Origin: a virus
Virus record (IMG/VR): IMGVR_UViG_3300045988_119623
Location: 1 to 60,584 of that record
Strand: one strand, 5' to 3'
DNA length: 60,584 nucleotides
Shown: in pieces, positions 3,232 to 53,658 of the stretch
Layout of the letters: each line of letters starts with the position of its first letter
Numbering within the stretch: position 1 is the first letter of the stretch
Made by a program: the position numbers and the translations under genes
Notes under the pieces: generated by a model
Seen by the model: the letters and a program-made list of their open reading frames with translations, nothing else
Told to the model about the DNA's origin: nothing
The model's database searches: none

Positions 3232-3239
3232 GAGGAATA

Positions 3240-4568: not shown

Positions 4569-5409
4569 AGTAAAGAAGCGTCCAAAATATCCAAAGAATT
4601 TTGAACGTGATTATTATCGCGTCCTCAGAGCCGTTGTAAGACGTTTAAAAAGTGCCACGAATAACAATATACCAATGCTGACATATTCGCTGCGTCAGGA
4701 CGATGACAGCACCGTTACAGATGCTTTCGTTCAGGCGATACTTTTAGAGCTTTTAAAGAGCATGACTGTTGAGGAAGCTATAAGCGAATTAGAGCTTATT
4801 CTTGCTGGCGTGTCCAGCGTTGTCGATGCTAATGTTATCAGTGCCTTTGCGGAAGCAGTCAGCGTTGATGTGTTTTTAAATGATTCGGTTTTACTTGATA
4901 CAGTAAAAGCGGAATGGAAAGCGCAGCAAGGCAGGCTTGTGGACAGCATAGTCAATACCTACATCGAAAAGCTACAAATCATTGTAAGCAATGCTGTTCA
5001 GCGTGGTACTGCCATGAGCGAAGTTGAAGAAGAAATCAAGGTACTGCTTAACACTACCGACAAGCGAGCAAAATTTATTGCAAGGAATGAGGTAGGCAAT
5101 CTGAACGGCATTATAACGATGAGAAGGCAGGTTGATTGCGGTATAAGCGTGTATCAATGGTCATCGTCACATGATGAACGTGTCAGACCTTCTCATGCTG
5201 AAATGGATGGGAAATACTTCTATTGGAACAGCGATAAGATGGGCGAGATTAACGGCATAAAGGTTTATCCTTCTCCGAAATATCATCCGTGTATGGATTA
5301 TAACTGCCGCTGCGTAGCATTACCTGTTATTGACCTGGAGCAATGGAACATGACAACAGCAGTTCCAATGGGTAGGGTTGATGTAAAGAAAAGCAAAGAA
5401 TTAAGCTAG
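4531..5409 (+). CDS. Head morphogenesis protein, SPP1 gp7 / Mu F family
   Basis: Motif 'ARNEVGNLNG...SSSHDERVRPSHAEMDGKYF'. The exact start is uncertain. Confidence 0.85.
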   Translation: MMKKQKKSIRYLKVKKRPKYPKNFERDYYRVLRAVVRRLKSATNNNIPMLTYSLRQDDDSTVTDAFVQAILLELLKSMTVEEAISELELILAGVSSVVDANVISAFAEAVSVDVFLNDSVLLDTVKAEWKAQQGRLVDSIVNTYIEKLQIIVSNAVQRGTAMSEVEEEIKVLLNTTDKRAKFIARNEVGNLNGIITMRRQVDCGISVYQWSSSHDERVRPSHAEMDGKYFYWNSDKMGEINGIKVYPSPKYHPCMDYNCRCVALPVIDLEQWNMTTAVPMGRVDVKKSKELS

Positions 5410-5470
5410 AAGGCGTATGCGAGAAATTGCATATGCTTTTTATATACCCCAAAATAAGGAGGTGAATTTT

Positions 5471-6628
5471 TTGGGAAGTGTACAACGATATGAGCGCATT
5501 GATTCATGGATGTTTGTTAGCGGTGCAGTTACTGACGCTGACGGCTTCTTGCGTGATTCTCCGATTGTGGCACGTACTGGCATCTATATCTACCAACAGC
5601 CAGACGGGACTATTAGACGAGAGTACAGACCGCCGGAGGAAGTGTTCGACGCTGACAGTGAAGCAAGCTTTGTCGGAAAGCCTATTGTGGTAGGACACCC
5701 AGCCAGCGGCATTGTAAACAGCGATACCGCACAAGATTTAGCCATTGGCACGATTTTGTCCAGCGGTTATCAGAAGGACGAAACAAATATTGCCTGTGAC
5801 ATTGTTATCCATAATCCCTCTGCTATCGGTGAAAAGCGTGGCTTGTCTTTAGGTTACAGAGTGGATGTTGAAGAAACTCCAGGCACTACACCGGACGGAC
5901 AGCAATATGACGCTATCCAGCGCAACATTCGTATCAATCATTTAGCCGTTGTTGACAGGGCACGTGCCGGAGCAAAAGCACGGCTTAATCTTGACGGTGA
6001 CGAAATTATCGAAGGAGTAGAAACAAAAATGAAAATTAAAATTGATTCTGTTGATTTTGAAGTTGACGAAAAAATTGCTAACTATGTCAACTCTCTGCAA
6101 AACAAAGAAGAAAACGCTCGTGTAAAGCTTGATACAGCTAACACTGAGCTTAAATCTGTAAAGGAGCAAAATACCGCTCTTAAAGCTGATGCTGACGACA
6201 AAAAAGCTAAACTTGACGCAATGACCGCTGAACGTGACGGCTTGAAAGCTAAAGTTGATGCTGCTGACGCTGAAAAGGAGAAAGCTGTAAAAGAGGCTGT
6301 TGAAGCTGTAAAGGCTGATATGCAGGAACGTGCGGAGCTTGAAGAAACCGCTAAAATTGCAAAGGTTGAAAAAACCGATGGCTTGACCAACGCTGAGTTG
6401 AAAGCTGGCATTGTTAAAGCTGCTTTCGGCGAAAAATTTAAACTTGACGGTGCATCTGATGCTTATCTTGACGGTGCATATTCTGCTGCTAAAGAGATGC
6501 TTCGTAACGATAACGCAAAAAATCAAGCCGCAAAAGCTAAAGGCGGTGCTGAAAAGCAAGAAACTAAGAATGATTCTGCTAACGATGCACGTAGCCGCAT
6601 GATTGCACGTATGCGCGGCGAAGAATAA
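5471..6628 (+). CDS. Scaffold / prohead-protease-like protein (DUF2213-like N-terminus, coiled-coil C-terminus)
   Basis: SD AAGGAGG lies 8 nt before TTG 5471. The C-terminal half is Ala/Lys/Glu-rich and helical (KADADDKKAKLDAMTAERDGLKAKVDAADAEKEKAVKEAV). Confidence 0.6.
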   Translation: MGSVQRYERIDSWMFVSGAVTDADGFLRDSPIVARTGIYIYQQPDGTIRREYRPPEEVFDADSEASFVGKPIVVGHPASGIVNSDTAQDLAIGTILSSGYQKDETNIACDIVIHNPSAIGEKRGLSLGYRVDVEETPGTTPDGQQYDAIQRNIRINHLAVVDRARAGAKARLNLDGDEIIEGVETKMKIKIDSVDFEVDEKIANYVNSLQNKEENARVKLDTANTELKSVKEQNTALKADADDKKAKLDAMTAERDGLKAKVDAADAEKEKAVKEAVEAVKADMQERAELEETAKIAKVEKTDGLTNAELKAGIVKAAFGEKFKLDGASDAYLDGAYSAAKEMLRNDNAKNQAAKAKGGAEKQETKNDSANDARSRMIARMRGEE

Positions 6629-6644
6629 GAAAGAGGTGAATACA

Positions 6645-7112
6645 ATGGCAATTACTAATTATGCATTAACCATGGACAAAGCTTTTGCTGGTTCGCTGTA
6701 TGATTTGTCCTCTCATACTGTAGATTCCTTTGCTGTTGAAGAAGCTGACGGTATTGGTGCTGCTTGCGCCGTTATCCGCGGCACTGACGCAGAGCATCAG
6801 GTGAAATCTCCGTCCGCATCCGGTGACGGTGCGAAAGTTATCGGCGTTACTCTGCATACCCATATTGAGCCGCCTGAAGCTGGCAAAAAATATTATCCGC
6901 AGAATTACACTGTTCCTGTTGTGACTAAAGGTCGTGTATGGGTAACTACCGGAGGTGCGGTTAACGCAGGTGACGAAGCTCATCTGAAACTTGCTGACGG
7001 CACGTTTGTTAAAGATGCTGTTGCTGCTGGCACCATTGAAGCTCTTGGATGCGGTGCTAAATTTATCACTTCCTGCGACAAGGCAGGCTTGGCAGTTATC
7101 GAAATTGGTTAA
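6645..7112 (+). CDS. Head decoration / cement-like protein
   Basis: 155 aa with SD AGAGGTG before ATG 6645. Located between the scaffold and major capsid genes. Confidence 0.5.
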   Translation: MAITNYALTMDKAFAGSLYDLSSHTVDSFAVEEADGIGAACAVIRGTDAEHQVKSPSASGDGAKVIGVTLHTHIEPPEAGKKYYPQNYTVPVVTKGRVWVTTGGAVNAGDEAHLKLADGTFVKDAVAAGTIEALGCGAKFITSCDKAGLAVIEIG

Positions 7113-7137
7113 TTAGAAAAGAAGAGGTGAAATAGTA

Positions 7138-8112
7138 ATGACTCAAATGCACTATGATGAATTAGACCTGAATGTTATTGAGCGTTGCGACGGCTTGCGT
7201 AAAGACGCAGGCGATACTATTTTTGTCGCAAAAGAACTCGAAGCTGTAAAGGCAAAAACCTATGACCAGAAATTCGCTAATCTGAATGCGCTGAAACTGT
7301 TTGATATGTCCTCTGACGTTGACCCCGGCGCTGACACTATCAGCTATCAGTCCTTGGGTTCTGTTGGCATGGCAAAGACTATCGCCAACTATGCAACCGA
7401 CTTTACTCGTGTAGATGTGCTGGCTGAAGAACACATTGCTAAAGTTATTGCTGGCGGTGCAGCATATGGCTACACCATGCAGGACTTGCGTCGTGCTGCT
7501 ATGGCAAGAAAACCGCTGACTGCTCGCAAGGCTATTGCTGTTCGCCGTGCTCTCGACGAATATATTAACCGCATTGCATTCCATGGTGATGCTAAACATG
7601 GCGTTGTAGGCTTGCTGGATAATCCTAACATTGGCAACTACACTGTTGCTGCCGATGGTGCTGGTGGTACTGGTTCTTCTACCAAATTCAAAGACAAAAC
7701 CGCTGTTCAGATTCTGCGTGATATGAACGGCATTATTAATTCTGTTAGCAAGCAGACTAATGACGTAGAAAATCCGAATACTCTCGTACTGCCGCCGGAT
7801 CAATACAACTACATTGCTTCTACCCCTTATTCTGATGTAGTCGCAGATTCCATTCTGTCTGTGTTTAAACGCAATAACCCGGATGTAACCGTACTGAAAG
7901 CCAATGAGCTGGCTGGCGCAGGTGTAGGCGGCTTGGATATGATGATTGCATACGTTAAGGATGCAGACCACCAAACCCTGGAAGTTCCGCTGCCGTTCAC
8001 TCAGCACACTATTCAGCAAAAAGGCTTGGAATTTGAAGTTCCTTGCGAGGTTCGTACCGCTGGCGTGTTGATTTACTATCCGCTGTCCATGAACAAGGCT
8101 TCTGGCATCTAA
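7138..8112 (+). CDS. Major capsid protein (DUF2184/encapsulin-like HK97 fold)
   Basis: 324 aa with SD AGAGGTG, followed by a strong terminator. Position is typical for a capsid gene; family assignment is from memory. Confidence 0.8.
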   Translation: MTQMHYDELDLNVIERCDGLRKDAGDTIFVAKELEAVKAKTYDQKFANLNALKLFDMSSDVDPGADTISYQSLGSVGMAKTIANYATDFTRVDVLAEEHIAKVIAGGAAYGYTMQDLRRAAMARKPLTARKAIAVRRALDEYINRIAFHGDAKHGVVGLLDNPNIGNYTVAADGAGGTGSSTKFKDKTAVQILRDMNGIINSVSKQTNDVENPNTLVLPPDQYNYIASTPYSDVVADSILSVFKRNNPDVTVLKANELAGAGVGGLDMMIAYVKDADHQTLEVPLPFTQHTIQQKGLEFEVPCEVRTAGVLIYYPLSMNKASGI

Positions 8113-8125
8113 TCTGACTATATAC

Positions 8126-8158
8126 TGCCCTTTCAAATGAGAGGGCATTTTCTTTTTT
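8126..8158 (+). terminator. Intrinsic terminator after the capsid gene
   Basis: 9-bp stem TGCCCTTTC/GAGAGGGCA with loop AAAT, followed by TTTTCTTTTTT. Confidence 0.75.
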
Positions 8159-8171
8159 AGGAGGAAAGTGA

Positions 8172-8516
8172 ATGAAAGTTAAAAACATCTCTAAAGCTGT
8201 AATTAATATCGACGGTAAATATATCATGCCTGATCAGTGCGGCATCGTTGGTGATGAATGGGGCGAAAACCTTATTGTAAAAGCCTACATCAAAGAACAA
8301 ATGATTACTGTTGAGAAAGGCAATGCTAAAGAAGCAAATGTTGATGATATGGCAGCAGACCTTGCAGGACTGTCCGCTGAATCCAGCAAGCGTTCTTTGA
8401 CTGCTTTCGCTAAGAAATACAATATTAATGTAGAGGGCGCAGAAACCGCAGAAGATATTTATTCCGTTATTTTTGCTTTTGTAAACATGGCAAAGAAAAA
8501 TGTTAACGGAAACTAA
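8172..8516 (+). CDS. Hypothetical virion-module protein (114 aa)
   Basis: SD GGAGGAAAG upstream; ORF in the structural operon. Confidence 0.55.
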   Translation: MKVKNISKAVINIDGKYIMPDQCGIVGDEWGENLIVKAYIKEQMITVEKGNAKEANVDDMAADLAGLSAESSKRSLTAFAKKYNINVEGAETAEDIYSVIFAFVNMAKKNVNGN

Positions 8517-8898
8517 AGATAAAATAAAGCAAGCTTTTTCTGTTATCTGCCCCGAACTGATTCTTACTGATGAAGAATTAGAAGTCTACATTAATCTTGT
8601 TTCGCCTATGTTGTCAGAAAGTGTTTTTGGCAATATGTATATAACAGCATTTGTTTATCTCATGGCGCATCACGTTGTCCTGCGTCAGCTTATTGCGCAG
8701 TATGGAGAAAACGGCTCATTTGATGTTGGTATTACAGGCTCTGTAACGTCGGAAAAAGAAGGTGACTTGCAACGTTCATATAGTGACAAGTCAGCTTCTT
8801 TCGATATGTTGGACAAGACGTACTATGGCATTGAATTTAAACGTTTGCGCTCTATGTGCGTTGTTCCGATAGTAACAAGATTGGATAATACGTTATGA
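8500..8898 (+). CDS. Head-tail connector (DUF4054 / gp6-like) candidate
   Basis: 132 aa in the position after the capsid gene. The pattern '...FGNMYITAFVYLMAHHVVL' is typical of head-tail adaptor proteins (from memory). Confidence 0.55.
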   Translation: MLTETKDKIKQAFSVICPELILTDEELEVYINLVSPMLSESVFGNMYITAFVYLMAHHVVLRQLIAQYGENGSFDVGITGSVTSEKEGDLQRSYSDKSASFDMLDKTYYGIEFKRLRSMCVVPIVTRLDNTL

Positions 8899-9389
8899 GT
8901 AGAGTAGAGGATAAAGATTTAGGTTTAAACCGTATTATACGAACGCTAAACAAAGACCTTGACGGCGTTGTGGTTAAGGTTGGTGTACAAGCTAAAGATA
9001 AAGCTGTACGGCGAGGGAAAGGCGGAAGCATTCGCAACACTGACCAGCCGTTGGCTGTTATTGCAGCGATACATGAATTTGGGCTGGGCGATATGCCACA
9101 ACGCTCTTTCCTGCGTTCTGCGTATGATGAAAATCTGCCCATGATTGACAAAATGATTCAACGTGTTGCCAATGGTGCTGTCTTTGGATTAGGAACCAAC
9201 GCTGCTCTTAATCAGTTGGGCAATGTCGTGCAAGGTATGGTTCAAAGAAAAATTGTCGACGGACCATTTGTTCCGAACTCTCCTGCGACGATAAAGCGCA
9301 AAAAAAGCTCCAGACCATTAATCGATACCGGGCATCTGCGACAATCAATCCGCTATGTCATTGAAAGAAAAGGTGGTAATCATGAGTAG
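8895..9389 (+). CDS. HK97 gp10-like neck / tail-completion protein
   Basis: Motif 'IHEFGLGDMPQRSFLRSA'. Start overlaps the upstream gene in an ATGA arrangement. Confidence 0.6.
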   Translation: MSRVEDKDLGLNRIIRTLNKDLDGVVVKVGVQAKDKAVRRGKGGSIRNTDQPLAVIAAIHEFGLGDMPQRSFLRSAYDENLPMIDKMIQRVANGAVFGLGTNAALNQLGNVVQGMVQRKIVDGPFVPNSPATIKRKKSSRPLIDTGHLRQSIRYVIERKGGNHE

Positions 9390-17919: not shown

Positions 17920-19312
17920 CGGTTTTGTCAGAAAGCGTTTGCCGGAGATTCGTGAAGATATTTTTAAAAGCTTGGAGCAAAATTTAGGCTCGACAGTTAG
18001 CCGTCAACCTAACAGCATGATAGGCGTTCTCGTTGGCGTGTATGCTGCTGAACTTGACAGAATGTGGCAGCTTTTAGAGCGTGATTATTATGACCGCTCG
18101 CCGATTAGTGCCAGCGAAGGCAGCTTAGACAATACGCTTGCTTACACCAATGTGCAGCGCAAGAAAGCTCAGGCAAGCTATCTCTATGCTGTATGTTATG
18201 GACGTAGCGGAATGGTTCTTCCTGCTAACTGCCAGATTAAAGATGCTTCCGGTTACAAATGGAATATTATCGAAGAAAGCACGATCACTCTTAATGATTG
18301 CGTACATGTAACGCTTGAAGTTGAAACGCCGACTAAAGGAAAGGTTTACAGTGTGCAGTTTGATAATGATGTAGTTATAAAATATACAGCGCAAGAAAAT
18401 GATACTGCGTTGATTGTCGCTGTTGCCTTGGCTTCTCAGAGCATTGAAAAGTGGCAAGGCAGTATTGTTGAAGGCAAACTGGTTTTTGAACGCACAGACA
18501 GGCGATATGGAGCTGTCGTTGTGCCTAACGAATCATTTGTAGTAACGCAGGTTGGAAGTCCTATTCGTTTTGATTGTGAGGAATACGGAGAAATTGAACC
18601 TTTGCTAAATAGCGTGAATTACATCAACACAAATTATGACGGCTGGTTTTCTGTTAGCAACGAATCTGAAACATATGTAGGGCGTGACTACGAAACAGCA
18701 TCCGAAGTTCGTCAGCGTTATGCGTCTGCTGTATTCAGAAACAGCATAGGAATGAAAGAAAGTATTAAGGCAGCATTACTTGAATTGCAGGATGTTACCA
18801 GCGTAACGATTTATGAAAACCGCTCTGATGAAACGGTTGATGGTTTAAAACCTCATTCCTTCCAGGCTATTGTTTTCGGTGGCGATGAAGAAGCTATTGC
18901 TCGCACTATCTTGAATGTTGCACCTTTAGGTATTGATACAAACGGCGATATTTGCGTTCGCATTGAGGACAGTGAGGGTGCAGCGCAAGATGTATGCTTT
19001 AGCCGTCCGCATGAGGTGCAGATTTATGTCAAGGTTATTATTAAAGAATATAACGAAGAAATTTTACCCGGTGATGCAATCGATAAAATTAAAAATATCG
19101 TTTTTGAACAGATTAGCAAGCTGTCGATGGGCAATGATGTTATTTATCAGCGTTTGCTTGGTCCTATTTACAGCGGTGTTGACGGTATTAGCTATATTGA
19201 GTGCAGCGTGTCTAAAGACGGTCAAACGTATAAGCAGGAAAACATTTCGATTGAACGTAATGAGCTGGCAGTAACAAAGCTTGCTAATGTTACTGTAGCT
19301 TTGGAGTTGTAA
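17897..19312 (+). CDS. Baseplate J-like protein
   Basis: 471 aa; follows the gp25-like gene, which is the canonical order. Confidence 0.7.
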   Translation: MEYGVTVNGFVRKRLPEIREDIFKSLEQNLGSTVSRQPNSMIGVLVGVYAAELDRMWQLLERDYYDRSPISASEGSLDNTLAYTNVQRKKAQASYLYAVCYGRSGMVLPANCQIKDASGYKWNIIEESTITLNDCVHVTLEVETPTKGKVYSVQFDNDVVIKYTAQENDTALIVAVALASQSIEKWQGSIVEGKLVFERTDRRYGAVVVPNESFVVTQVGSPIRFDCEEYGEIEPLLNSVNYINTNYDGWFSVSNESETYVGRDYETASEVRQRYASAVFRNSIGMKESIKAALLELQDVTSVTIYENRSDETVDGLKPHSFQAIVFGGDEEAIARTILNVAPLGIDTNGDICVRIEDSEGAAQDVCFSRPHEVQIYVKVIIKEYNEEILPGDAIDKIKNIVFEQISKLSMGNDVIYQRLLGPIYSGVDGISYIECSVSKDGQTYKQENISIERNELAVTKLANVTVALEL

Positions 19313-19314
19313 CC

Positions 19315-20001
19315 ATGACTACAAGCGAAAGAATGTATAACCATTTGTTAAGTCAGTTTCGCAACAAGCCTAACATTAAAGCTTTTCTTAATGCCGTTGG
19401 AAACGAACTCGACAGCATAGATAAAGTAAGGGAGCAGATAAGGACACAGATATGGCCAGATACTGCGGTTGGTAAGCAGCTTGATATGTGCGGTGAAGTC
19501 GCTGATATTACTCGCCGTGTTGAAAATGCTATTGCAATGGATTTTTTTGGTTTTCCTGATCATGGCAACATGGGATTCGGGCAAGCTCCGTTTAGACGTA
19601 TGTATGATAATTATCTTACATCCAGCGACTTAAACGACCGTTATTACCGTCTTGCTGTTATCTCGAAGATTGAGAAAAATACGACGGACTGCTCTCGCGT
19701 TAGCACTATACACAGCATAAAGAAAGTTTTTGGTGTTGAACGTATTTCTGCTGTAAATGCCGGAAATGCCAAAATGCGTATAGGAATAGGACGTTTAGTA
19801 ACAAGTCAAGAAAGCCGCTTGATTGATGCACTGAACCTTATTATCCGTGGCGCCGGTATTGGCGTAATTTATGTCTATTCTTTCGATGCTACAAATACGT
19901 TCGGCTTTAGCAGAAGCGGAGAAAATCCTTATAGGTTTAAAGGATTTAATCAAGGAACATTCGCAAGGATTATAAAGGTGAAAGGGGGACTTGTTGAATA
20001 A
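19315..20001 (+). CDS. Baseplate wedge / tail-fibre-connector candidate
   Basis: 228 aa; assignment is by synteny after the J-like gene. Confidence 0.5.
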   Translation: MTTSERMYNHLLSQFRNKPNIKAFLNAVGNELDSIDKVREQIRTQIWPDTAVGKQLDMCGEVADITRRVENAIAMDFFGFPDHGNMGFGQAPFRRMYDNYLTSSDLNDRYYRLAVISKIEKNTTDCSRVSTIHSIKKVFGVERISAVNAGNAKMRIGIGRLVTSQESRLIDALNLIIRGAGIGVIYVYSFDATNTFGFSRSGENPYRFKGFNQGTFARIIKVKGGLVE

Positions 20002-20450
20002 TGGTAATGAAACAGCCTACTTTTGATTTAATTTTTGGCAGCAGCGCAAGCGTCGGTGAGATGATTGATTCTTGGCCTGAGCTTGATTACCTGCGTGGTT
20101 GGGGGTATCTTGACAAAGGAGAAGCACCGCCGCTTGAATACTTTAACAAATTGCAAAATGTGAGCGATTTAAAAAGCCAGTACCTTTTTAACAGTTTAAA
20201 CATTCGCAAGAACAGTACATCTTATGCAAATGGCGACATCGTATTGTCACCCAACTTGCCTAAAAGTGTTGTCTTAGCTTGTATTGTTGGTGGCGATACT
20301 GCTGTGAGTGAACCGGATTTTAGCAAAGCTACAATCGGTGCAACTTATGTAGACGGTTCGGTAGCTTGGGAAGTTATTCCACGAGCTTACAGATTACAGA
20401 CAGCAACAAATGTTGAAATTCAGAATTTGATTACAAAGGAGCTTGCATAA
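20001..20450 (+). CDS. Hypothetical tail protein
   Basis: ATG overlaps the upstream stop codon; 149 aa. Confidence 0.5.
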   Translation: MVMKQPTFDLIFGSSASVGEMIDSWPELDYLRGWGYLDKGEAPPLEYFNKLQNVSDLKSQYLFNSLNIRKNSTSYANGDIVLSPNLPKSVVLACIVGGDTAVSEPDFSKATIGATYVDGSVAWEVIPRAYRLQTATNVEIQNLITKELA

Positions 20451-20872
20451 TGGCTAACTTGCAAAAATTGATTGATCTTGACGGATTAAGCTATTTTTTA
20501 GGGCAGATTAAAGCTAAATTTGTTCGGTCCGTAAATAACGTAAAGCCTGATTCAAGTGGCAATATTAATATCGCTAATATGACAGGCGCAACATACAACA
20601 GCTCCGGTAGAGCAGGACTTGCGCCAATTCCGGCAGCAGGAAAGCAGGATATGGCGTTATGCGGCGATGCTACATATAAAGTTCTTTCTATCTCTGGTGG
20701 CGGTACAGGACAAACTACCGTTGCTGGTGTTCGTTATGTTTTGGGTTTAGGTAATACGAACGGAGCATTGCCTATTGCTAATGGCGGCACAGGAGCTACA
20801 ACTGCCGAAGCTGCAAGAAGAAATCTAGGTATTGATAGTGTAGGTGTAACAATGATTACCTATACAGAATAA
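20450..20872 (+). CDS. Tail fibre protein (short)
   Basis: Contains 'LDGLSYFLGQIKAKF', 'VNNVKPDSSGNINI' and 'ANGGTGATTAEAARRNLG', all common tail-fibre motifs. Confidence 0.6.
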   Translation: MANLQKLIDLDGLSYFLGQIKAKFVRSVNNVKPDSSGNINIANMTGATYNSSGRAGLAPIPAAGKQDMALCGDATYKVLSISGGGTGQTTVAGVRYVLGLGNTNGALPIANGGTGATTAEAARRNLGIDSVGVTMITYTE

Positions 20873-20882
20873 GAGGTAAATT

Positions 20883-21071
20883 ATGGCTAATAAGGTAGAT
20901 GTAATTACATCGTGGAGCAATGCTGAAACTTATACCTTTACTGTTCCGGAAGGCGTTACTGAAATTACCGTAGAGATTTCAGGGGCTGGTGCTGGCGGTT
21001 ACGGAAGAAACTACAATGACAGTGGCAGTAGCGGTAGCGTTGGCGAATCAAGTGGCGGCGAAGGCAACTAA
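20883..21071 (+). CDS. 62-aa N-terminal piece of a glycine-rich tail protein domain, or alternatively a radical-SAM substrate peptide
   Basis: SD AAGAGGT upstream. Sequence 'ETYTFTVPEGVTEITVEISGAGAGGYGRNYNDSGSSGSVGESSGGEGN'. It parallels 'GTYSLRIPAGVTKIYVTGCGGGAGG' in the second domain of ORF 22146..23306. Confidence 0.6.
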   Translation: MANKVDVITSWSNAETYTFTVPEGVTEITVEISGAGAGGYGRNYNDSGSSGSVGESSGGEGN

Positions 21072-21078
21072 GGTACTT

Positions 21079-22143
21079 ATGAATAATTTTAGCGAAGAAT
21101 TACACGAGCTTAACGACCTGGGTGCGGTTTATCTTTTCCTTGGTACTGCTTGCAATATGTCATGTAGGCATTGCGTTCAAACTCCTATTAAAAGTTGTTT
21201 TAATCTTGCCCCTCATGGAAAAGAGTTATCGCAAGAGGTAAAAGACTTTATAGTTATGTGGAGTAACCTGCCTTGGAAATACGCTGAAAATAATCCTCGC
21301 AGATTATATTTTTGGGGCGGAGAACCTTTGCTTTATTGGGAAACCATTAAGAAACTCGTACTTGAGTTTAAAAAATTCGGCGTACAGAATGTTAGCTATA
21401 GAATTTTTAGTAACGGATTGCTTTTAAATAATGAAATAGTTGACTTCTGTAACGAGCATGATATTTGGTTTATTATGAGCTATGATGCACCGAACGCAAG
21501 AGCTGCGAGAAATGCAGTACCCAGTAAAGAAGCGTGTAAAAAGTTTTTGCGCATAAGGAAAAGAGCGGTTAACACTGTTTTTAATGCTATAAACGATAAC
21601 ATGGTAGAAGCTTTTGATTGGCTACATTATACGTTTCCTGGAACAGAAATCACTTGTGGTCTTATGAATGTGTTGAGTGAGCATACGCCGCTTGACCTAT
21701 ATCAATTTAAGCCTAATGCAGTAAGAAATGCAGTTAAAAATTTGTGGTTAATCGCAAATTCTGATAGTGAGATTGCTCCCTATATTCGACATTGGTTTTA
21801 CTCAAAAATCTTGCGTGTAAGGGGTTTTAACAAAGAAGAATTTTACAAATATCCTTATCCGCCTTGCCGTCCTGCTGTAGTAAGCCTTAGCGTAAATTTT
21901 AACGGAGAAATTATGCTGTGTCATAATACAGATAAGATTGTAGGGCATATTACAGATAACTTTACAGAGCTACAGGAAAAGCATAGAAAAATTTTTGAGG
22001 AACTTTTGCCTATTAAATGTAAGACTTGTGAGCATTTGGATATTTGCCGTTGTATTTGTCCTATTGCAGTACAAAAAGACGGTGAGTTATGCCATTGTGA
22101 TTACTTGCGAGAATTCTGGGGAGCAATAAAAGAGGTGATGTAG
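21079..22143 (+). CDS. Radical SAM enzyme with a C-terminal SPASM domain (354 aa)
   Basis: CX3CX2C 'CNMSCRHC' at nt 21151..21174 and SAM-binding 'WGGEPLL'. SPASM signature 'CRPAVVSLSVNFNGEIMLC' (CX12GX4C), then 'CKTCEHLDICRCIC' (CX2CX5CX3C), then further Cys residues 'CHC'. Confidence 0.9.
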   Translation: MNNFSEELHELNDLGAVYLFLGTACNMSCRHCVQTPIKSCFNLAPHGKELSQEVKDFIVMWSNLPWKYAENNPRRLYFWGGEPLLYWETIKKLVLEFKKFGVQNVSYRIFSNGLLLNNEIVDFCNEHDIWFIMSYDAPNARAARNAVPSKEACKKFLRIRKRAVNTVFNAINDNMVEAFDWLHYTFPGTEITCGLMNVLSEHTPLDLYQFKPNAVRNAVKNLWLIANSDSEIAPYIRHWFYSKILRVRGFNKEEFYKYPYPPCRPAVVSLSVNFNGEIMLCHNTDKIVGHITDNFTELQEKHRKIFEELLPIKCKTCEHLDICRCICPIAVQKDGELCHCDYLREFWGAIKEVM

Positions 22144-22145
22144 AA

Positions 22146-23306
22146 ATGGCTATAGGTTATGGCGAACGTGTAACAAGAACTATTAGTGTTACCCCTGGCA
22201 CGCAGTACACTATTACTATTGGTGCTGGCGGAAAAGGTGGCGAAGGTGTAACGACAAGCGATTCTGATTATGTTTATGGTACAGCCGGAGAAGCTTCTTC
22301 TGCATTAGGTGTAACTGCCAGAGGTGGCGTTTATAGCGGCAGTAGTAGCACTAATTACTCTAGCGGCGGTTCACCTGTTGGCAATTCTAGTAAGGTACAA
22401 GGCAGTACAGGGGGTAACGGTGTAGACGGATTTTGCATTTTATCTTATAAGGTTGACAAAGATAAGTATTCAAAAAAAATGAGTAGCATTCCGGAAACTG
22501 TTTTTGAGATGCAAAAAAAAGACGGCTCGAAGTATCTGCTGTATAAAGATGTAGTTACGTTAAAGCGTACAAGACTTATCTATAAAACCGTAGGCACTTA
22601 CAGTTTGAGAATTCCTGCTGGCGTTACAAAAATATATGTTACTGGTTGCGGCGGTGGAGCTGGCGGTATTACTGTTGGTGCTTATAATGCCTGTCCCACG
22701 TTGGATATGCAAGCAGGAAACGGCGGAGATACGAAAGTTGGCAGTTATGTTATTTCCGGCGGACAAGGCGCAACTGCTACTTTAAGAAGCGGTAATGTAA
22801 TGACTGTTAATCAGCCTGCTGCTTCTAAAAATGGTGTAAGAGGACAATATGTTACCGCCAGAAACAGGGATTTTTCTGTACATGGATACGGTTTTCCGCT
22901 TAACAAGAATGGTGTCGCTTCTTTAGCAAACGTAATGGATAAGGTTGGATATTACTATGCTAATGTGCTAGGAACGAAAGATAGCGTAACTTATACATCT
23001 ACAGGAACCTTTGAATCGTTTAACATCTATGGTGCAGGTGGCGGTTCATTTCATTTTTTTGACTCTGATGGTACTTCTAATCAAATTGGTGTTGCAGGAA
23101 ATAGCGGTGCTTATGTTGCTGATGTAGAAGTTGAAGTAACTCCGAACAGTACTATTCAAATTGTTGTAGGCGCAGGAGGTAAAAACACCTTTTACAGTAA
23201 CGACGGCGACCGTGCAAAAAGATTTAGAGTGAGTGACGGAACACAAGGTTTTGTTATTATTGAATATGGTGGAGCAACACCATATATTCCAACAACAAAT
23301 AAATAA
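22146..23306 (+). CDS. Glycine-rich-domain tail protein: the remainder of domain 1 plus a complete domain 2
   Basis: SD GAGGTG lies 9 nt upstream. Domain 1 remainder: 'GYGERVTRTISVTPGTQYTITIGAGGKGG...GFCILSY'. Domain 2: 'TYSLRIPAGVTKIYVTGCGGGAGG...VEVTPNSTIQIVVGAGGKN...GFVIIEY'. Confidence 0.75.
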   Translation: MAIGYGERVTRTISVTPGTQYTITIGAGGKGGEGVTTSDSDYVYGTAGEASSALGVTARGGVYSGSSSTNYSSGGSPVGNSSKVQGSTGGNGVDGFCILSYKVDKDKYSKKMSSIPETVFEMQKKDGSKYLLYKDVVTLKRTRLIYKTVGTYSLRIPAGVTKIYVTGCGGGAGGITVGAYNACPTLDMQAGNGGDTKVGSYVISGGQGATATLRSGNVMTVNQPAASKNGVRGQYVTARNRDFSVHGYGFPLNKNGVASLANVMDKVGYYYANVLGTKDSVTYTSTGTFESFNIYGAGGGSFHFFDSDGTSNQIGVAGNSGAYVADVEVEVTPNSTIQIVVGAGGKNTFYSNDGDRAKRFRVSDGTQGFVIIEYGGATPYIPTTNK

Positions 23307-23319
23307 GGGGGTAAAAAAA

Positions 23320-23904
23320 TTGGCAAGTACAACAGGTAAGTTAGATAAAATTCATGTATTCCCTAGTTATAATAGCTTTAATAAAAACATTTCTAGTGTT
23401 AACAGTAATGATTTTGCTTTTGTTAAAACAGATTTGTTAGATAAGCTTGCAGGAAACACTACACCTACACTTGTAGCATTAATTGATTGGGATACCATGA
23501 AAACAAGAAATGGTGGTACAGATGTAAGAAATATTAATAATACTTCTACAGGCATTAGAGCTTATGGCGGTGATGCTTCTTTCCCGACAACATCGGGCGG
23601 AAGTGACAGAACGAGAAGTACAATAATGCTTAAAGAATCTTACACACTGTATGATAAGATTTTGGTGGTTGGAAGTGGCGATACTGGTAGTGATATTAAA
23701 TACGAATTGCACGATGTTTGGAATTTACAAAAAGCATTTTCTGAAGGATATAGTTTTTATCTTATTAATGACTATAGCTCTTATTGGTGCCTGTATTCAG
23801 GGGTGCAATCTGGAACAACTACTCACCTTCTTTCGACAGATACTATTTGGTACAATGCATCCCAAAACAGCTCTATCATTGAAATTTATGGAGTTAAGTA
23901 TTAA
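23320..23904 (+). CDS. Hypothetical tail-fibre-region protein
   Basis: SD AAGGGGG lies 8 nt before TTG 23320; 194 aa. Confidence 0.5.
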   Translation: MASTTGKLDKIHVFPSYNSFNKNISSVNSNDFAFVKTDLLDKLAGNTTPTLVALIDWDTMKTRNGGTDVRNINNTSTGIRAYGGDASFPTTSGGSDRTRSTIMLKESYTLYDKILVVGSGDTGSDIKYELHDVWNLQKAFSEGYSFYLINDYSSYWCLYSGVQSGTTTHLLSTDTIWYNASQNSSIIEIYGVKY

Positions 23905-23917
23905 AGAGGTGAAATAA

Positions 23918-24496
23918 ATGTTTTATTTGTTTAAAAACAAAAAAGGTATTGCTATTAGTATTTCCGAAGATTCTTTAAAAAACTACATTGCAGGCATGGA
24001 TAACGGCGTTGACGAGTATGTCATCAAGAATATTAGTTCTTCTGCTACTCCTACCGATTTTTCTCTTGATGAAAACGGTGATGTTGTTTTTCCGAAAGAT
24101 GATGATGATCTTGTTTTAGTTTTTCAAAAAAAACTTAAGCTAAAAGAGATTAACGATTGGACTGCAAGTAAAATTACTGGCGGTTTTGTTAGTGAAGCAA
24201 GCGGAGAAAAAGTCACCTATGACAGCGATTTAGAAACGCAAATCACGATGCAAGGCATTGCTCTTAATGTAAATTCAGAGCAGTTTGCTGAAAAATATTC
24301 CATCGGTTGCCCTGTTCGTGGTTATAAAGGCGGAGAAAAAGAAAAGACAATTCAATATCTTAGTGCTAGTCAGGTGTTACAGTGGATGGCTGACTTAAGC
24401 ATACATATAGGAGATTGCAAACAAGCAGGCTGGAAAAAACAGGCTGAAGTAGAATCTTGCAAAACTGTTTTTGAACTCAATAATATAGAATTGTAA
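23918..24496 (+). CDS. DUF4376-like (fibre-associated) protein
   Basis: Pattern 'KLKEINDWTASKITGGF...YDSDLETQITMQG' (from memory). Confidence 0.5.
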   Translation: MFYLFKNKKGIAISISEDSLKNYIAGMDNGVDEYVIKNISSSATPTDFSLDENGDVVFPKDDDDLVLVFQKKLKLKEINDWTASKITGGFVSEASGEKVTYDSDLETQITMQGIALNVNSEQFAEKYSIGCPVRGYKGGEKEKTIQYLSASQVLQWMADLSIHIGDCKQAGWKKQAEVESCKTVFELNNIEL

Positions 24497-24505
24497 GAGG
24501 TGATA

Positions 24506-32326: not shown

Positions 32327-32350
32327 GAGTTCAAAATGAGTTCCGAAAAT
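32327..32350 (+). repeat. Tandem GAGTTCAAAAT / GAGTTCCGAAAAT: second arm-site candidate, abutting the int stop codon
   Basis: Read directly. Confidence 0.5.
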
Positions 32351-33459
32351 TAAAATTCACTATTTTTAGTTGACTTATCAACGGTTAAACTCTCTAATTT
32401 GTCTACAGCTTTCCTATTAGCTTCTGGCATCATGTGAGCGTAAAATTCAAAGGTTGTGTTTTTATCTGCGTGACCAATCTGTTTAGCGACTGCTAGAATA
32501 TCTCCGGTAGCTGCGTAAAGCATTGAAGCATAGCTGTGCCGGAGAATGTGAGGACTAATTCTTGGCAAGCCTAACTTAGTACAGTGATATTGCATATATG
32601 TTCTGATAGCCGACGGTTTTATGCCATCAAAGATATAATCTTCTGGTTTAGCCTTATAAAGCGTGCCTATGTAGTCTATGATTTGATTATAGAGGTATTT
32701 CGGTATTTCAACATCACGCACGGAGCTTCTTGTTTTTGGTGTGCTAATGACAAATTCATCTTTATTGTGTATCCTCATTAGTGATTTATTAACATGAATT
32801 TTATAGGGCGATATATCCTCGATTTTTAGAGCCATAACTTCACCTATGCGCAAGCCTGCCCAAAAGATGATATTGAACAGTACTCTATGTGAAGCTATCT
32901 TAATATCATCATAGAAAATCTTATACTGTTCTACTGTCCATAATTTCGCACGTGTATCGTTTGAATATGGCTTTACCCTGTCAGTAAGAGTAACAGGGTT
33001 ATTTTTTGTCCCGCAATTTCTTTTAGAGAATTCAAAGACCTGGCTTAATTCTGAACGTATCTGATTTAGCAGTCTGCTTGAGAGCCGTTCTTTTTTTGAT
33101 TTCTCATTTTGAATGGCAAGCCAGCGCATAACTTGAAGCGGAGTAACCTTGTCGACGTTCATATTCTCAAAGAAAGGGAGGACATAATATTTTAATGCCT
33201 GGTTTTTCTTGTCGACAGTCGACTGCTTTAATTCTCCTAGCTTTAGTTTGCTGTCCAGCTCTTCCCGGTATGCTGTAATAACTTCGCTGAATTTCGGATC
33301 ATGTGTATGAGTTTTGTTCCTCATGTCGCTTTCATATTTTTCAGCATCGCGCTTTTTGTCAAAACCTCTTTTTGTTGTATGTTTGCGTACGCCTTGCCAA
33401 TCCTTATACCAAAAAGCACAGTCCCATTTTCCTGTTTTCAGATTTTTTGTTACTGTCAT
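32350..33459 (-). CDS. int: Tyrosine recombinase / phage integrase
   Basis: Motifs 'GLRIGEVMALK' and 'HILRHSYASMLY...IGHADKNTTFEFYAH' (catalytic R..HxxR..Y pattern). Confidence 0.92.
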   Translation of the reverse strand: MTVTKNLKTGKWDCAFWYKDWQGVRKHTTKRGFDKKRDAEKYESDMRNKTHTHDPKFSEVITAYREELDSKLKLGELKQSTVDKKNQALKYYVLPFFENMNVDKVTPLQVMRWLAIQNEKSKKERLSSRLLNQIRSELSQVFEFSKRNCGTKNNPVTLTDRVKPYSNDTRAKLWTVEQYKIFYDDIKIASHRVLFNIIFWAGLRIGEVMALKIEDISPYKIHVNKSLMRIHNKDEFVISTPKTRSSVRDVEIPKYLYNQIIDYIGTLYKAKPEDYIFDGIKPSAIRTYMQYHCTKLGLPRISPHILRHSYASMLYAATGDILAVAKQIGHADKNTTFEFYAHMMPEANRKAVDKLESLTVDKSTKNSEF

Positions 33460-38234: not shown

Positions 38235-39245
38235 ATGGGACTGTTTAAAAAGGCTGAACGCAAAAAAGCGTTTTTGAAAATTGCTATTACCGGTGTTAGT
38301 GGCAGCGGTAAAACCTACAGCGCATTGCAGTTGGCGCAAGGATTAGGTGATAAGATTGCAATGATAGATACGGAAAACGGCAGCGGTGAGCTGTACAGTA
38401 ATCTGTGCGAATACGATGTAGCTCCGATGTCAGCACCCTTTACACCGGAAAAGTACATTGATTACATCCATGAGGCAGAGCAAGCAGGATATAACGTGTT
38501 GATTATTGACAGTTTATCTCATGCGTGGGCAGGTGAAGGCGGCGTTCTTGATTTTGTTGATAAGAAAGCGGCGACAACAAGAAGCGGTAATAGCTTTACT
38601 GCATGGAAGGACGCTACTCCGAAGCAAAATAAGCTTGTTGACGCAATTCTCCAAGCAAAAATGGACGTAATTGTTTGCATGAGAAGCAAGCAGGCATATG
38701 AGATTGTAGAGAATGAAAAAGGCAAAAAAATGCCGATAAAAATGGGATTAGCTCCTATTCAGCGAGACGGCTTAGAATATGAATTTACAGTAATGTTTGA
38801 CATTAGTGTTGAGCGTCATATGGCCGCTGCTACAAAAGACAGAACCGGATTATTTGTTGATTGGTGTGAAGTAATTACTCCGCAGATCGGCAAAAAGATT
38901 CGTCAATGGTGTGATAGTGGTGTAGAAATCACGGAAAATAAATTCGTTAAGCTTGAATATGGAAAAGCGTATGTGCGTACTCGTAATGGTATGACAGATA
39001 TTGTAGAACTGACATACGATCAGCTAGAGCAACTGCTTCAAGCTCCAAATTATAGTTTAGCGCATAACGCAATAAGGGAACGCTTAGAGCTGATAGAAGC
39101 AGCACAGGCAGAAATCCCCGAGATGAAAGAACAGCAAGAAGATTTTAGCGCAGCAGAAATTGAAGAAGCTGCCAATGTTAAGCCTCTTAATGTTGTTTCT
39201 GATAATGCGGTGTTCAAGACGCCAGAAAGCGAAAAAAATGAGTAA
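38235..39245 (+). CDS. AAA/RecA-like ATPase (Sak4-like recombination protein)
   Basis: Walker A 'GVSGSGKT' and Walker B 'VLIIDSLSHAW'. Confidence 0.75.
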   Translation: MGLFKKAERKKAFLKIAITGVSGSGKTYSALQLAQGLGDKIAMIDTENGSGELYSNLCEYDVAPMSAPFTPEKYIDYIHEAEQAGYNVLIIDSLSHAWAGEGGVLDFVDKKAATTRSGNSFTAWKDATPKQNKLVDAILQAKMDVIVCMRSKQAYEIVENEKGKKMPIKMGLAPIQRDGLEYEFTVMFDISVERHMAAATKDRTGLFVDWCEVITPQIGKKIRQWCDSGVEITENKFVKLEYGKAYVRTRNGMTDIVELTYDQLEQLLQAPNYSLAHNAIRERLELIEAAQAEIPEMKEQQEDFSAAEIEEAANVKPLNVVSDNAVFKTPESEKNE

Positions 39246-39519
39246 GAAAAGCATATTACAGAGTGACAAGGAGTGCTTTATGTGCGGTACAACCTGTAAC
39301 CTGGAGCGCCATCATGTGATATTTGAAGCAGCCGGGAGAAAGATTTCGGACAAGCTGGGTTTAACAATCTGGCTATGCTACGAACATCACAAAGGAAAAC
39401 TCGGACCTCATTTGGACAGGGAAACAGACTTGCGGTTAAGGCGATTTGCTCAAACCTGCTATGAAGATAAACATAGCCGGGACGAGTGGATAGAGAAAAT
39501 TGGGAGAGATTACCTATGA
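39238..39519 (+). CDS. Small HNH/zinc-ribbon-like protein
   Basis: Motif 'CFMCGTTCNLERHHV...WLCYEHH'. Confidence 0.55.
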   Translation: MSKKSILQSDKECFMCGTTCNLERHHVIFEAAGRKISDKLGLTIWLCYEHHKGKLGPHLDRETDLRLRRFAQTCYEDKHSRDEWIEKIGRDYL

Positions 39520-39596
39520 GAAAGAAAGCACTTATGAAGTATGTGAGGTTACTTAGACGGCAACCATTATGGAAGAAGTTATTGTAGGAGGGCGAC

Positions 39597-40490: not shown

Positions 40491-40502
40491 TGAGGTGATA
40501 GC

Positions 40503-53569: not shown

Positions 53570-53587
53570 AGCTGATGACAGGAGCTT

Positions 53588-53607
53588 AAGCTCCTGTAAA
53601 GCTACCG
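53588..53607. promoter_or_regulatory. Perfect 20-bp palindrome ACAGGAGCTTAAGCTCCTGT
   Basis: Read directly. No T-tract follows, so it may be a hairpin or a protein-binding site. Confidence 0.4.
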
Positions 53608-53658
53608 GGCAGAAGGTTCAAAGTCCTTGCCAATAGCTTTAGAAAGGAAGTCGATTTT

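Follow-up and report, generated by a model that had tools for sequence, protein, structure and literature searches.

A radical SAM (rSAM)/SPASM enzyme is encoded among the fibre genes of a virus sequence of 60,584 nt (IMG/VR record IMGVR_UViG_3300045988_119623, positions 1 to 60,584), which we call the window and which belongs to a gut phage of strictly anaerobic bacteria, and across many unrelated phages the gene for this enzyme is paired with a structural protein that ends in a conserved C-terminal tail. The residue used at one position of the tail, Ser or Cys, varies together with the clade of the enzyme. On balance, we favour the reading that the enzyme is a maturase of the free, flexible C-terminal tail of the neighbouring tail protein, in which it probably forms small rings of the ether or thioether type; we infer that modification takes place in the tail, and likewise its nature and its structural role. 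At the level of the sequence, this conserved pairing suggests that virion proteins are modified by an enzyme in a way that has so far not been described. A preliminary description of the locus had also regarded such a system as new, and in a full-text literature search no paper describing an rSAM/SPASM enzyme that acts on phage tail proteins was found. Table 1 gives the positions of the features discussed below.

Table 1. Positions of the enzyme gene, its motifs, the proposed target tail and the surrounding fibre genes in the window.
Feature	Position	Strand	Details
140-aa proximal fibre piece	20450..20872	+	precedes the tail-bearing ORF; conserved in relatives
62-aa ORF	20883..21071	+	N-terminal fragment of the first Gly_rich_2 domain (beta-hairpin, YTFTVPEGVTEITVEISGAGAGG); PF21722 profile positions 3-43, E = 1e-3
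C-terminal tail SGSSGSVGESSGGEGN	21021..21068	+	proposed modified core; directly 5' of the TAA stop
rSAM/SPASM enzyme	21079..22143	+	354 aa; ATG 21079 to TAG 22143
CX3CX2C, rSAM [4Fe-4S] cluster motif	21151..21174	+	C25, C29, C32 (CNMSCRHC); invariant
GGEPLL, SAM-binding motif	21316..21333	+	G80-L85; G80, G81, E82 and L84 invariant
SPASM region	21865..22098	+	seven invariant Cys: C263, C281, C314, C317, C323, C327, C340
386-aa fibre protein	22146..23306	+	PF21722 profile positions 41-129, E = 1e-10
194-aa distal ORF (TTG start 23320) and 192-aa DUF4376 protein	23320..24496	+	close fibre set 1

By motif, HMM and fold tests, the enzyme is a member of the rSAM superfamily and of the SPASM subfamily. 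The cluster motif, the SAM-binding motif and the complete SPASM signature named in the preliminary description are all present, and their key residues (Table 1) show no variation among the 21 homologues, with 32-88% identity, across which invariance was judged. The SPASM spacing is C263-X12-G276-X4-C281 and C314-X2-C317-X5-C323-X3-C327, followed by C340, and C281-H282-N283 is likewise invariant in the alignment of homologues. Of the two HMM models that had been proposed as a check, TIGR04085 (SPASM) passes with 29.6 bits on residues 266-333 against a cut-off of 27, while PF04055 stays slightly under its cut-off (26.2 bits vs 29.5, E = 1e-5); Fer4_12 (PF13353) passes with 25.5 bits against a cut-off of 22. 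About 25 rSAM models of RiPP or protein maturases match the enzyme with E values from 1e-13 to 1e-5, and for every named maturase family the score is far under the equivalog cut-off. In a profile search against PDB sequences, the best match was TigE (8VPO, 1e-29) and the second was CteB (5WGG, 7e-23). The AlphaFold model of the enzyme has a pLDDT of 90.3 and a pTM of 0.89, and its top Foldseek matches, which include anSME, ChlB, CteB and TigE, are all rSAM enzymes, with anSMEcpe in first place (E = 5e-13, TM 0.63). The dN/dS value is 0.07-0.09, and the gene is under strong purifying selection.

The N-terminus of the enzyme is without a RiPP recognition element, as the CX3CX2C motif already begins at residue 25. 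The alignments with TigE and CteB start at residues 102 and 87 of these proteins, which is past their recognition elements (residues 3-85 in TigE). Nearly all of the 313 relatives found at E <= 1e-30 are 330-410 aa long and match over the full length. Relatives of 660-800 aa were considered as substrate-enzyme fusions of the Rosetta-stone kind, and they turned out to be double rSAM proteins. At present the rSAM gene is mis-started by gene callers, with products of 373-409 aa. These longer forms were rejected: their extensions are unconserved and start in the +1 frame of Gly codons, a stretch that is open because GNG codons can never be stop codons.

The genes around the enzyme form the structural module of a myovirus, with terminase, portal, capsid, sheath-like protein, tape measure, baseplate J and DUF2612. 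Two fibre sets follow downstream of baseplate J/DUF2612, each closing with DUF4376. The upstream stop codon (21069-21071) is separated from the enzyme gene by 7 nt and the downstream ATG (22146) by 2 nt, the same gaps as first described, and the enzyme had rightly been placed between two pieces of a glycine-rich protein. For Gly_rich_2 (PF21722), the 386-aa ORF scores 42.2 bits, above the gathering score of 24.3; the 62-aa ORF scores 19.6 bits, which is under the cut-off, but it covers the complementary positions of the profile (Table 1). Both pieces are read in one frame and the rSAM gene in the +1 frame. In the 386-aa protein, the rest of the first Gly_rich_2 domain, which is split, comes before another Gly-rich domain, which is not; the AlphaFold model of this protein is poor (pLDDT 52, with residues 1-125 below 50). 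ORFs of 62-76 aa equivalent to the 62-aa ORF were found in all close relatives. A reading of the 386-aa ORF and its downstream neighbour as a frameshifted 587-aa homologue was rejected, as the 587-aa proteins bear another C-terminal module and the next ORF owns its TTG start (23320) and a ribosome-binding site.

In the annotation of the window, the neighbourhood of the enzyme contains no transporter, peptidase, sulfatase, queuosine or qhp gene, and for the first four of these the preliminary description had said the same. The genes nearby, for baseplate, fibre, DUF4376, holin and lysin, do not make up a canonical RiPP cluster. When compared with GenBank phages, neither megablast of positions 19300-24500 nor tblastn of the 386-aa protein gave a match, and tblastn of the enzyme gave only weak N-terminal matches (24-31% identity) in Ralstonia RSP15, Campylobacter phages and unannotated faecal phages.

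The 62-aa protein ends with ...S-V-G-E-S-S-G-G-E-G-N, which contains two Ser-x-Gly-Glu units, SVGE and SGGE. Shared among the tails are two [Ser/Cys]-x-x-[Glu/Asp] units with the consensus S-x-G-E-G-S-G-G-E-G, and between these and the stop codon there are 0-2 further residues. The tail is 10-16 residues long, with V, A, Y, H, S or Q at x; tails of the Cys type contain CGSE, CGGGE, CSVD or CGGE. For Ser, AGY and TCN codons are both in use, for Gly all four of its codons, and for Glu GAA and GAG. Because synonymous codons vary in this way, with Ser drawn from two codon families, what is conserved is the amino-acid sequence of the tail. The last SGGEG unit has purine-rich codons, which probably double as a Shine-Dalgarno site for the gene that follows, and some of the conservation could therefore operate at the level of DNA. 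An origin of the tail as a whole at this level was largely rejected, given the codon diversity and a length that extends beyond the ribosome-binding site.

About 12 enzyme lineages (34-100% identity), from the tail modules of myo-, sipho- and podoviruses, have a tail-bearing structural protein beside the enzyme gene. A neighbourhood survey found the homologues consistently in phage tail or fibre modules and not in metabolic clusters; like the outcome of the other computational checks, this favours the interpretation given in the preliminary description. The tail-bearing ORF adjoins the rSAM gene in every lineage with upstream sequence; for lineage B it lies two genes upstream, with a 164-aa ORF separating it from the enzyme gene, and this counts against a tail maturase. 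The bodies that bear the tail are unrelated, comprising Gly_rich_2 fragments of 62-76 aa and proteins of 171-206, 227, 268-286, 443-751 and 595 aa. In the podovirus case, the tail is borne by the gene upstream of the nozzle protein. Viral contigs were also scanned for GEG-x-GGEG, and among the at least 120 loci listed the rSAM gene is directly downstream of every credible C-terminal tail of the Ser type that had sufficient flanking sequence.

Enzymes with Ser tails form one clade, whose sister clade is made up of the Cys-tail lineages D, E and L242. Cys/Asp tails are also present in L244 and in the outgroups L029 and L072 (23-28% identity). Within the same body family, L241 combines a Ser tail with a Ser-clade enzyme, whereas L023 combines a Cys tail with a Cys-clade enzyme. 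The baseplate genes of L023-26 are nearly the same as in the window, but their fibre cassette differs, and in it the tail-bearing protein and the enzyme (40% identity) have been swapped together.

The Gly_rich_2 domain is cut right after the tail in the window and in L244, L240 and L002; in L002 the split is at the window's position and the rSAM gene is located elsewhere. In L058, the domain is in three pieces, two of which have terminal tails. In phages L246 and L248 the homologous Gly-rich fibre gene is unsplit; the tail is absent from them, as is any rSAM gene within 11-12 kb. Two further loci count against a tail maturase. L059 is the one family member that has no tail ORF; it is a short contig in which a minus-strand membrane-protein ORF abuts the locus, and it may be chimeric. 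L243 (33% identity) adjoins a QueC-like ORF and is without a tail. Downstream of the enzyme in lineages C, D and E there are holin, 99-152-aa proteins or unrelated proteins, with no Gly-rich C-fragment. Thus, of the two substrates suggested in the preliminary description, the 62-aa product is retained for its conserved C-terminal tail, and the large downstream glycine-rich protein is dropped, being replaced elsewhere by unrelated genes. The link to anaerobic hosts that had been proposed fits the two hosts that could be assigned, both of which are Acidaminococcaceae. Members of this family are strict anaerobes. One of the loci, L034, is a prophage of Succiniclasticum ruminis DSM 9236 (contig NZ_FONL01000010.1) and has a fibre protein of 441 aa.

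In the favoured reading, the substrate in the window would be the 62-aa protein, the N-terminal piece of the Gly-rich domain of the fibre, with the folded body of the structural protein standing in for the leader of a RiPP and the tail for its core. SAM would be reductively cleaved to yield a 5'-deoxyadenosyl radical, and this would take a hydrogen from the carbon beside the side-chain carboxylate of Glu or Asp in the manner of PapB. The carbon radical would then be captured by the side chain three residues upstream, which would be Ser-O here and Cys-S in the sister clade, and an electron would pass to the auxiliary clusters. The fibre protein would thereby gain, at its C-terminus, one or two rings of four residues each, closed by an ether or a thioether. 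We suggest that such rings would rigidify the tail and shield it from proteases, allowing it to dock with the remaining Gly-rich domain or to form the fibre tip. On this proposal, the Gly-rich gene would be cut into ORFs after each tail because the enzyme could reach only chain ends.

The PapB/CteB ranthipeptide (thioether) maturases have the same rSAM core and seven-Cys SPASM domain. The enzyme aligns over its full length with the PapB family model NF047865 (residues 15-328 on profile positions 3-317 of 330), scoring 48.7 bits against a cut-off of 340, and with models of the PapB/CteB type in general it scores about 50 bits against cut-offs of 340-425. PapB links Cys to the carbon beside the carboxylate of an Asp or Glu placed towards the C-terminus, and substrates of the PapB type have repeated short units with a Cys and, a few residues on, an Asp or Glu (PMC12373016). 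This Cys-then-acid arrangement is also found in the tails of lineages D, E, L242 and L244; in the window's clade the residue at the donor position is Ser. Unlike PapB and CteB, the enzyme has no recognition element, and its target would be the C-terminus of a virion protein rather than a leader-core peptide that gets cleaved and exported. Since there is no Cys in the window tail, the analogy with PapB needs a Ser-to-Glu ether. To our knowledge, this linkage is undescribed for the PapB-like enzyme group, and the only ether precedent we know of is the Thr-Gln ether of TqqB, a more distant enzyme.

Two other known systems invite comparison. QhpD is an rSAM/SPASM enzyme that makes Cys-to-Asp/Glu thioethers in the gamma subunit of quinohemoprotein amine dehydrogenase, a subunit that remains within a larger assembly. 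Its model TIGR03906 gives 47.4 bits on our enzyme against a cut-off of 453; unlike here, QhpD belongs to a dedicated operon for a periplasmic enzyme, with a peptidase and a transporter and without a phage or virion context. The isopeptide chainmail of the HK97 capsid is a covalent maturation of virions and thereby a covalent post-translational stabilisation of a phage structural protein, the same concept as proposed here. On the other hand, HK97 cross-linking is autocatalytic and oxygen-tolerant, whereas here a dedicated encoded enzyme would target tail proteins, and judging from its enzyme class it would be oxygen-sensitive and SAM-dependent.

Another radical chemistry on the same tail seems rather unlikely to us. 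Candidates are an epimerisation of tail residues like that by YydG, a linkage of the C-C or C-alpha type, and a cross-link between molecules, in which the tail would be joined either to the split Gly-rich domain's C-terminal fragment or to adjacent subunits in the fibre trimer; epimerisation and cross-linking had already been suggested in the preliminary description. Since the sequence relatives of the enzyme include YydG, SuiB, TigE and CteB alike, the chemistry is unreadable from homology. The substrates of the cyclopropylglycine synthases TigE and TvgB, the former being the best PDB sequence match, contain short repeated Gly-containing units, TIGSVS and TVGG (PMC10878394), whereas the tails compared here have no conserved Val/Ile for cyclopropanation. 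A link between the domain fragments would suit the window, L244 and L240, where the tail is exactly at the domain break and the halves must re-associate. Lineages C, D and E, however, lack the Gly-rich C-fragment, and therefore such a link cannot be the general function; no conserved partner residue was found among the C-fragment N-termini compared. The strict combination of Ser/Cys with an acid at +3 is most simply understood as an intramolecular donor-acceptor pair, as ring formation would have it.

We consider it improbable that the tail receives the chemistry of anSME, in which Ser (Cys in the sister clade) would be converted to formylglycine, giving one or two reactive aldehydes at the fibre end that could serve covalent assembly or adhesion. 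anSME is the top fold match, and that it makes formylglycine and not cross-links counts against the ring-forming reading. It is similar in size (about 360 aa), it is without a recognition element, and it acts on a protein rather than a peptide. An interchange of Ser and Cys at one position, a hallmark of anSME substrates, is observed in the tails. By HMM score, however, anSME is weaker than the RiPP maturases, with 34 bits for TIGR03942 (cut-off 349) and 23 for NF010308 (cut-off 484) compared to about 50 for the top models, and it is not among the PDB profile matches at E <= 0.01. The tails do not contain the sulfatase motif (C/S)-x-(P/A)-x-R, there is no sulfatase gene at the locus, and the conserved cluster-binding Cys of the SPASM region are seven, not eight. 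The invariant acid at +3 from the Ser or Cys, moreover, would have no role. One anSME accepts both Ser and Cys, whereas here tails of the two types are served by separate enzyme clades.

Less probable again, and very doubtful in our judgement, is that the enzyme is cargo (for example anti-defence, nucleotide/metabolic or viperin-like) in a variable fibre region, the tails being linker remnants and ribosome-binding sequences. A complete SPASM domain with seven invariant Cys does not suit such cargo, even though the prokaryotic viperin model gives 50 bits on the N-terminal core of the enzyme, and fibre regions are hot spots for cargo genes. The final GGEG codons do overlap the likely Shine-Dalgarno site, but the tail outruns the ribosome-binding site and uses both Ser codon families. 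Similarly, the QueC-like ORF beside one relative of 33% identity has to be set against the pairing as a whole: the Ser/Cys type of the tail follows the enzyme clade, enzyme and tail-bearing protein are exchanged jointly, unsplit homologues have neither, and the pairing recurs in three tail morphotypes. A selfish insertion (intron, intein or homing cassette) that split the fibre gene by chance would account for Gly-rich halves in one frame with the rSAM ORF between them, but it is effectively refuted, as Rfam shows no intron or other RNA family in 20400-23400, non-coding sequence around the gene amounts to just 7 nt and 2 nt, the HMM matches include no nuclease domain, stop codons between the ORFs exclude an intein, the L002 domain is split at the same site with the rSAM gene elsewhere, and purifying selection on the gene is strong.

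Taking ring formation at the tail as the favoured reading, a wider proposal can be put forward tentatively, and we hold it as a possibility rather than an expectation. Phages of anaerobes may have an unrecognised class of virion maturation, in which rSAM/SPASM enzymes without a recognition element would use the C-termini of tail, fibre and nozzle proteins as protein-borne RiPP cores, would form Ser-O-to-Glu ether macrocycles in the window's clade, and in which fibre genes would be cut to provide free ends.

If the reading is true, a maturation step with its own dedicated radical enzyme would be known for the first time for phage tail or receptor-binding proteins. The reading accounts for odd annotations in which an rSAM gene lies among the two or three ORFs of a broken Gly-rich fibre gene. 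RiPP-style chemistry would then reach the ends of large structural proteins, beyond exported peptides and without a recognition element, and the split between Ser-tail and Cys-tail clades would be a natural experiment on the switch from a thiol to a hydroxyl donor in rSAM chemistry. The compact enzyme, together with the tag S-x-G-E-G-S-G-G-E-G of about 10 residues, would be a possible tool for stapling C-termini. Finally, the infectivity of gut and rumen phages would be tied to an oxygen-sensitive enzyme, and hence to the physiology of their anaerobic hosts.

The enzyme encoded directly downstream of the 62-aa ORF belongs to the radical SAM (rSAM) superfamily, SPASM subfamily. Its CX3CX2C cluster (CNMSCRHC; C25/C29/C32), GGEPLL motif (residues 80-85) and complete SPASM signature of seven cysteines (C263-X12-G-X4-C281, C314-X2-C-X5-C-X3-C327 and C340) are present as the preliminary description had read them, and in an alignment of 21 homologues (32-88% identity) all of them, together with the triplet C281-H282-N283, are invariant. 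In the HMM search proposed there, the curated cut-offs of Fer4_12 and of the SPASM model TIGR04085 were passed, but PF04055 was just under its own (26.2 bits against 29.5). The family profile matched the solved structures of TigE (8VPO, E = 1e-29) and CteB (5WGG, 7e-23), and the confident AlphaFold model (pLDDT 90.3) superposes with anSME, ChlB, CteB and TigE at TM ~0.6. The dN/dS of the gene is 0.07-0.09 against seven close relatives. The enzyme belongs to no named maturase family, with all equivalog scores at 23-51 bits against cut-offs of 170-855. A RiPP recognition element is absent, as CX3CX2C begins at residue 25 and the TigE and CteB matches begin past theirs. Longer forms of 373-409 aa (homologues P0001-P0009; window 20989-21078) were rejected: gene callers start 19-55 codons too early, the extra stretch is the +1 frame of upstream Gly codons, where no stops are possible, and these extensions are unconserved. 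Separately, the lineage B enzymes (L002, L003, L017, L018 and L058 among the related loci) have a conserved N-terminal extension of ~55 aa beginning MVLQVGKLVDNVLVAKFITNNTLKEFKDL, and homologues P0164, P0174 and P0181 each combine two rSAM/SPASM modules in a single fused polypeptide of 660-800 aa, whose C-terminal module is in the enzyme family.

In each lineage, an ORF beside the enzyme gene ends in a tail of two [Ser/Cys]-x-x-[Glu/Asp] units, 0-2 residues before the stop. The bodies bearing these tails are unrelated and range from 62 to 751 aa, including Gly-rich fragments, 171-206-aa proteins, proteins with weak sub-threshold Ig-like matches, and the product of a gene that precedes the one for a podovirus nozzle protein. 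The tail is conserved at the protein level: its Ser codons are of both the AGY and the TCN kind, and all four Gly codons and both Glu codons are in use. Its last unit probably doubles as a ribosome-binding site. At 23-28% identity, tails of the Cys/Asp/Asn type end fibre-like proteins in L029, where three tandem rSAM/SPASM genes follow, and in L072.

C-terminal tails of the partner proteins, each followed by the stop codon
Source	Tail	Remark
Window	GSVGESSGGEGN
Close relatives	GSAGEGSGGEGN	one more SGGEG unit in L014
L032	SSGEGGSGGEGSGGEG
L002	PSSGEGSGGEGA
L019	GSSGEGSGGEGSGGE
L061, L062, L064	SGEGSGGEGGA
L033	SQGEGSFSEGEGGGF
L240	GCGGQGSGGEGSGGEA
L241	STGSGGEGSGGEGG
L023	SSCGSEGGCGGGEG
L005	SCSVDYSGCGGEGG
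L242	GCYDSGGEG
L244	SDCCDCGEK
L029	CNCDCNCNCDCGDSDSDGA
L072	YNCNCDCGGD

The Gly_rich_2 profile (PF21722) is matched at positions 3-43 by the 62-aa ORF and at 41-129 by the 386-aa ORF, so that the two are successive parts of Gly_rich_2 and the enzyme gene lies inside one fibre domain. The earlier reading of two pieces of a glycine-rich tail protein is thus borne out, as is the spacing of 7 nt from the upstream stop and 2 nt to the downstream ATG. The domain also occurs unsplit, both in the latter half of the 386-aa protein and in the homologues P0152 and P0155. The cut always falls immediately past a tail, even with the enzyme gene elsewhere, as in L002 (268-aa tail-bearing ORF, 164-aa ORF, enzyme gene); the tail-bearing and enzyme genes are non-adjacent in lineage B. 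L058 has two cuts in the domain, with a tail at the end of each upstream piece, and in L246 and L248, which have unsplit homologous fibre proteins, neither tail nor enzyme was found.

The type of tail follows the enzyme. In a neighbour-joining tree, all Ser-tail enzymes form one clade, and the Cys-tail lineages D, E and L242 are its sister; Cys tails also occur in L244 and the outgroups. The tail-bearing bodies of L241 and L023 are homologous; tail and enzyme are of the Ser type and Ser clade in L241, and of the Cys type and Cys clade in L023. In a motif-first scan of viral contigs, among the matches listed, an enzyme gene came after all credible C-terminal Ser-type tails for which the flanking sequence was long enough; one Thr-type ORF (ending GEGTGGEG) had no enzyme gene. 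No tail ORF lies beside the enzyme gene in L059, a short and possibly chimeric contig, and L245 is too short for judgement. The upstream tail is the only constant partner of the enzyme. In L002, a 573-aa fibre protein ending SYDDYGGDS is directly followed by another, distinct rSAM/SPASM gene (335 aa), so that this siphovirus locus seems to hold a second enzyme-substrate pair. In three unrelated phages, the fibre protein encoded immediately before the tail-bearing one ends in a common motif, (F)P-x-G-x-(K/E)-(M/I)-W-(V/I)-x, where the distal fibre piece may dock.

The window phage is a myovirus (terminase, portal, capsid, sheath-like protein, tape measure, baseplate hub, baseplate J, DUF2612), and its tyrosine integrase marks it as temperate. 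Two fibre gene sets, each closed by a DUF4376 protein, follow the baseplate genes and precede the integrase. DUF4376 is the last gene of every fibre set in L001, L002, L241, L246 and L248 as well, in phages with and without the rSAM enzyme. The twister ribozyme falls within the phage's early or replication half, and the transposase is either an IS element within the prophage or the beginning of host DNA.

Coordinates of features in the window and in related loci
Source	Feature	Position	Strand	Remark
Window	radical SAM/SPASM ORF	21079-22143	+	354 aa
Window	ends of the two fibre sets, each with a DUF4376 protein	24496, 27796
Window	tyrosine integrase, Arm-DNA-binding domain	32350-33459	-
Window	replication module (AAA_24, replisome organiser, IstB-like ATPase)	38235-41360
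Window	type-P5 twister ribozyme (RF02684)	53570-53628	+	48.3 bits, gathering 37.6, E = 5e-7
Window	IS-type transposase (rve, HTH_21, rve_2)	59653-60534	+	right end
L002	fibre protein, P-x-G end	3107-3712
L005	fibre protein, P-x-G end	2851-4476
L019	fibre protein, P-x-G end	2733-3656
L002	N-terminal extension of enzyme	5001-5165
L002	573-aa fibre protein and second rSAM/SPASM gene	6225-8957
L029	fibre-like protein and three rSAM/SPASM genes	1596-5791
L072	fibre-like protein	near 1478
L243	enzyme relative and QueC-like ORF	3-2613

The enzyme family comprises 73 clusters at 90% identity, all metagenomic, and its relatives (E <= 1e-30) 313 clusters at 50% identity, nearly all of 330-410 aa and matched over the full length; a sequence search found no close relative in named GenBank phages. 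Every context of readable length is a tail module, in line with the tail-gene association suggested earlier: a P2-like myovirus (L001), a siphovirus with Phage-tail_3 (L002), T7-like podoviruses (L005 and L240, the latter with the nozzle protein) and a Succiniclasticum ruminis DSM 9236 prophage (L019/L034). The two assignable hosts, Phascolarctobacterium (MAG) and Succiniclasticum (isolate), are both Acidaminococcaceae of the class Negativicutes, and strict anaerobes. In L243, a relative of 33% identity adjoins an ORF whose CGMCFPC motif resembles that of QueC, with no tail-bearing protein; it may be a branch outside the fibre context.

We consider it likely that the enzyme modifies the tail of its partner protein. 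Because it has no recognition element, the flexible chain end would probably be threaded into the active site, which would explain why the tails are strictly terminal. Among characterised enzymes, PapB is the one with a substrate rule that by analogy would fit the tails: Cys is joined to the carbon beside the carboxylate of an Asp/Glu lying C-terminal to it (PMC12373016), and the Cys-type tails CGSE, CSVD and CGGE obey it. With Ser as donor in the window's clade, an ether ring would result, and we tentatively propose that the 62-aa protein carries one or two four-residue ether/thioether rings at its C-terminus. Different chemistry on the same tail, intermolecular links included, is unlikely; a link between fragments as a general function is at odds with the gene downstream of the enzyme, which is not conserved and codes variously for a Gly-rich C-fragment, a fibre protein of 573 aa, a holin or a 99-152-aa protein. 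Oxidation to formylglycine as by anSME would agree with the fold and with the Ser/Cys interchange, but the sequence comparison is unfavourable, a sulfatase motif is missing and the acidic residue of the tails is conserved, which makes it rather improbable. There is little chance that the enzyme is unrelated cargo; L023-26 have baseplate genes near-identical to those of the window phage and a different fibre cassette, in which tail-bearing protein and enzyme were exchanged jointly. A selfish insertion is barely credible, and neither an intron RNA nor a nuclease nor an intein explains the split at the enzyme locus.

No description of rSAM enzymes in phage tail modules was found in the literature searched, the preliminary description likewise knowing of none; this coverage is incomplete and an earlier description is possible. 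The enzyme-tail system is proposed to work like a RiPP maturase or QhpD-type protein cross-linking. Unlike these, the enzyme works without a recognition element and its locus without a peptidase or exporter, the donor in the window's clade would be Ser, and the substrate would be a virion protein.
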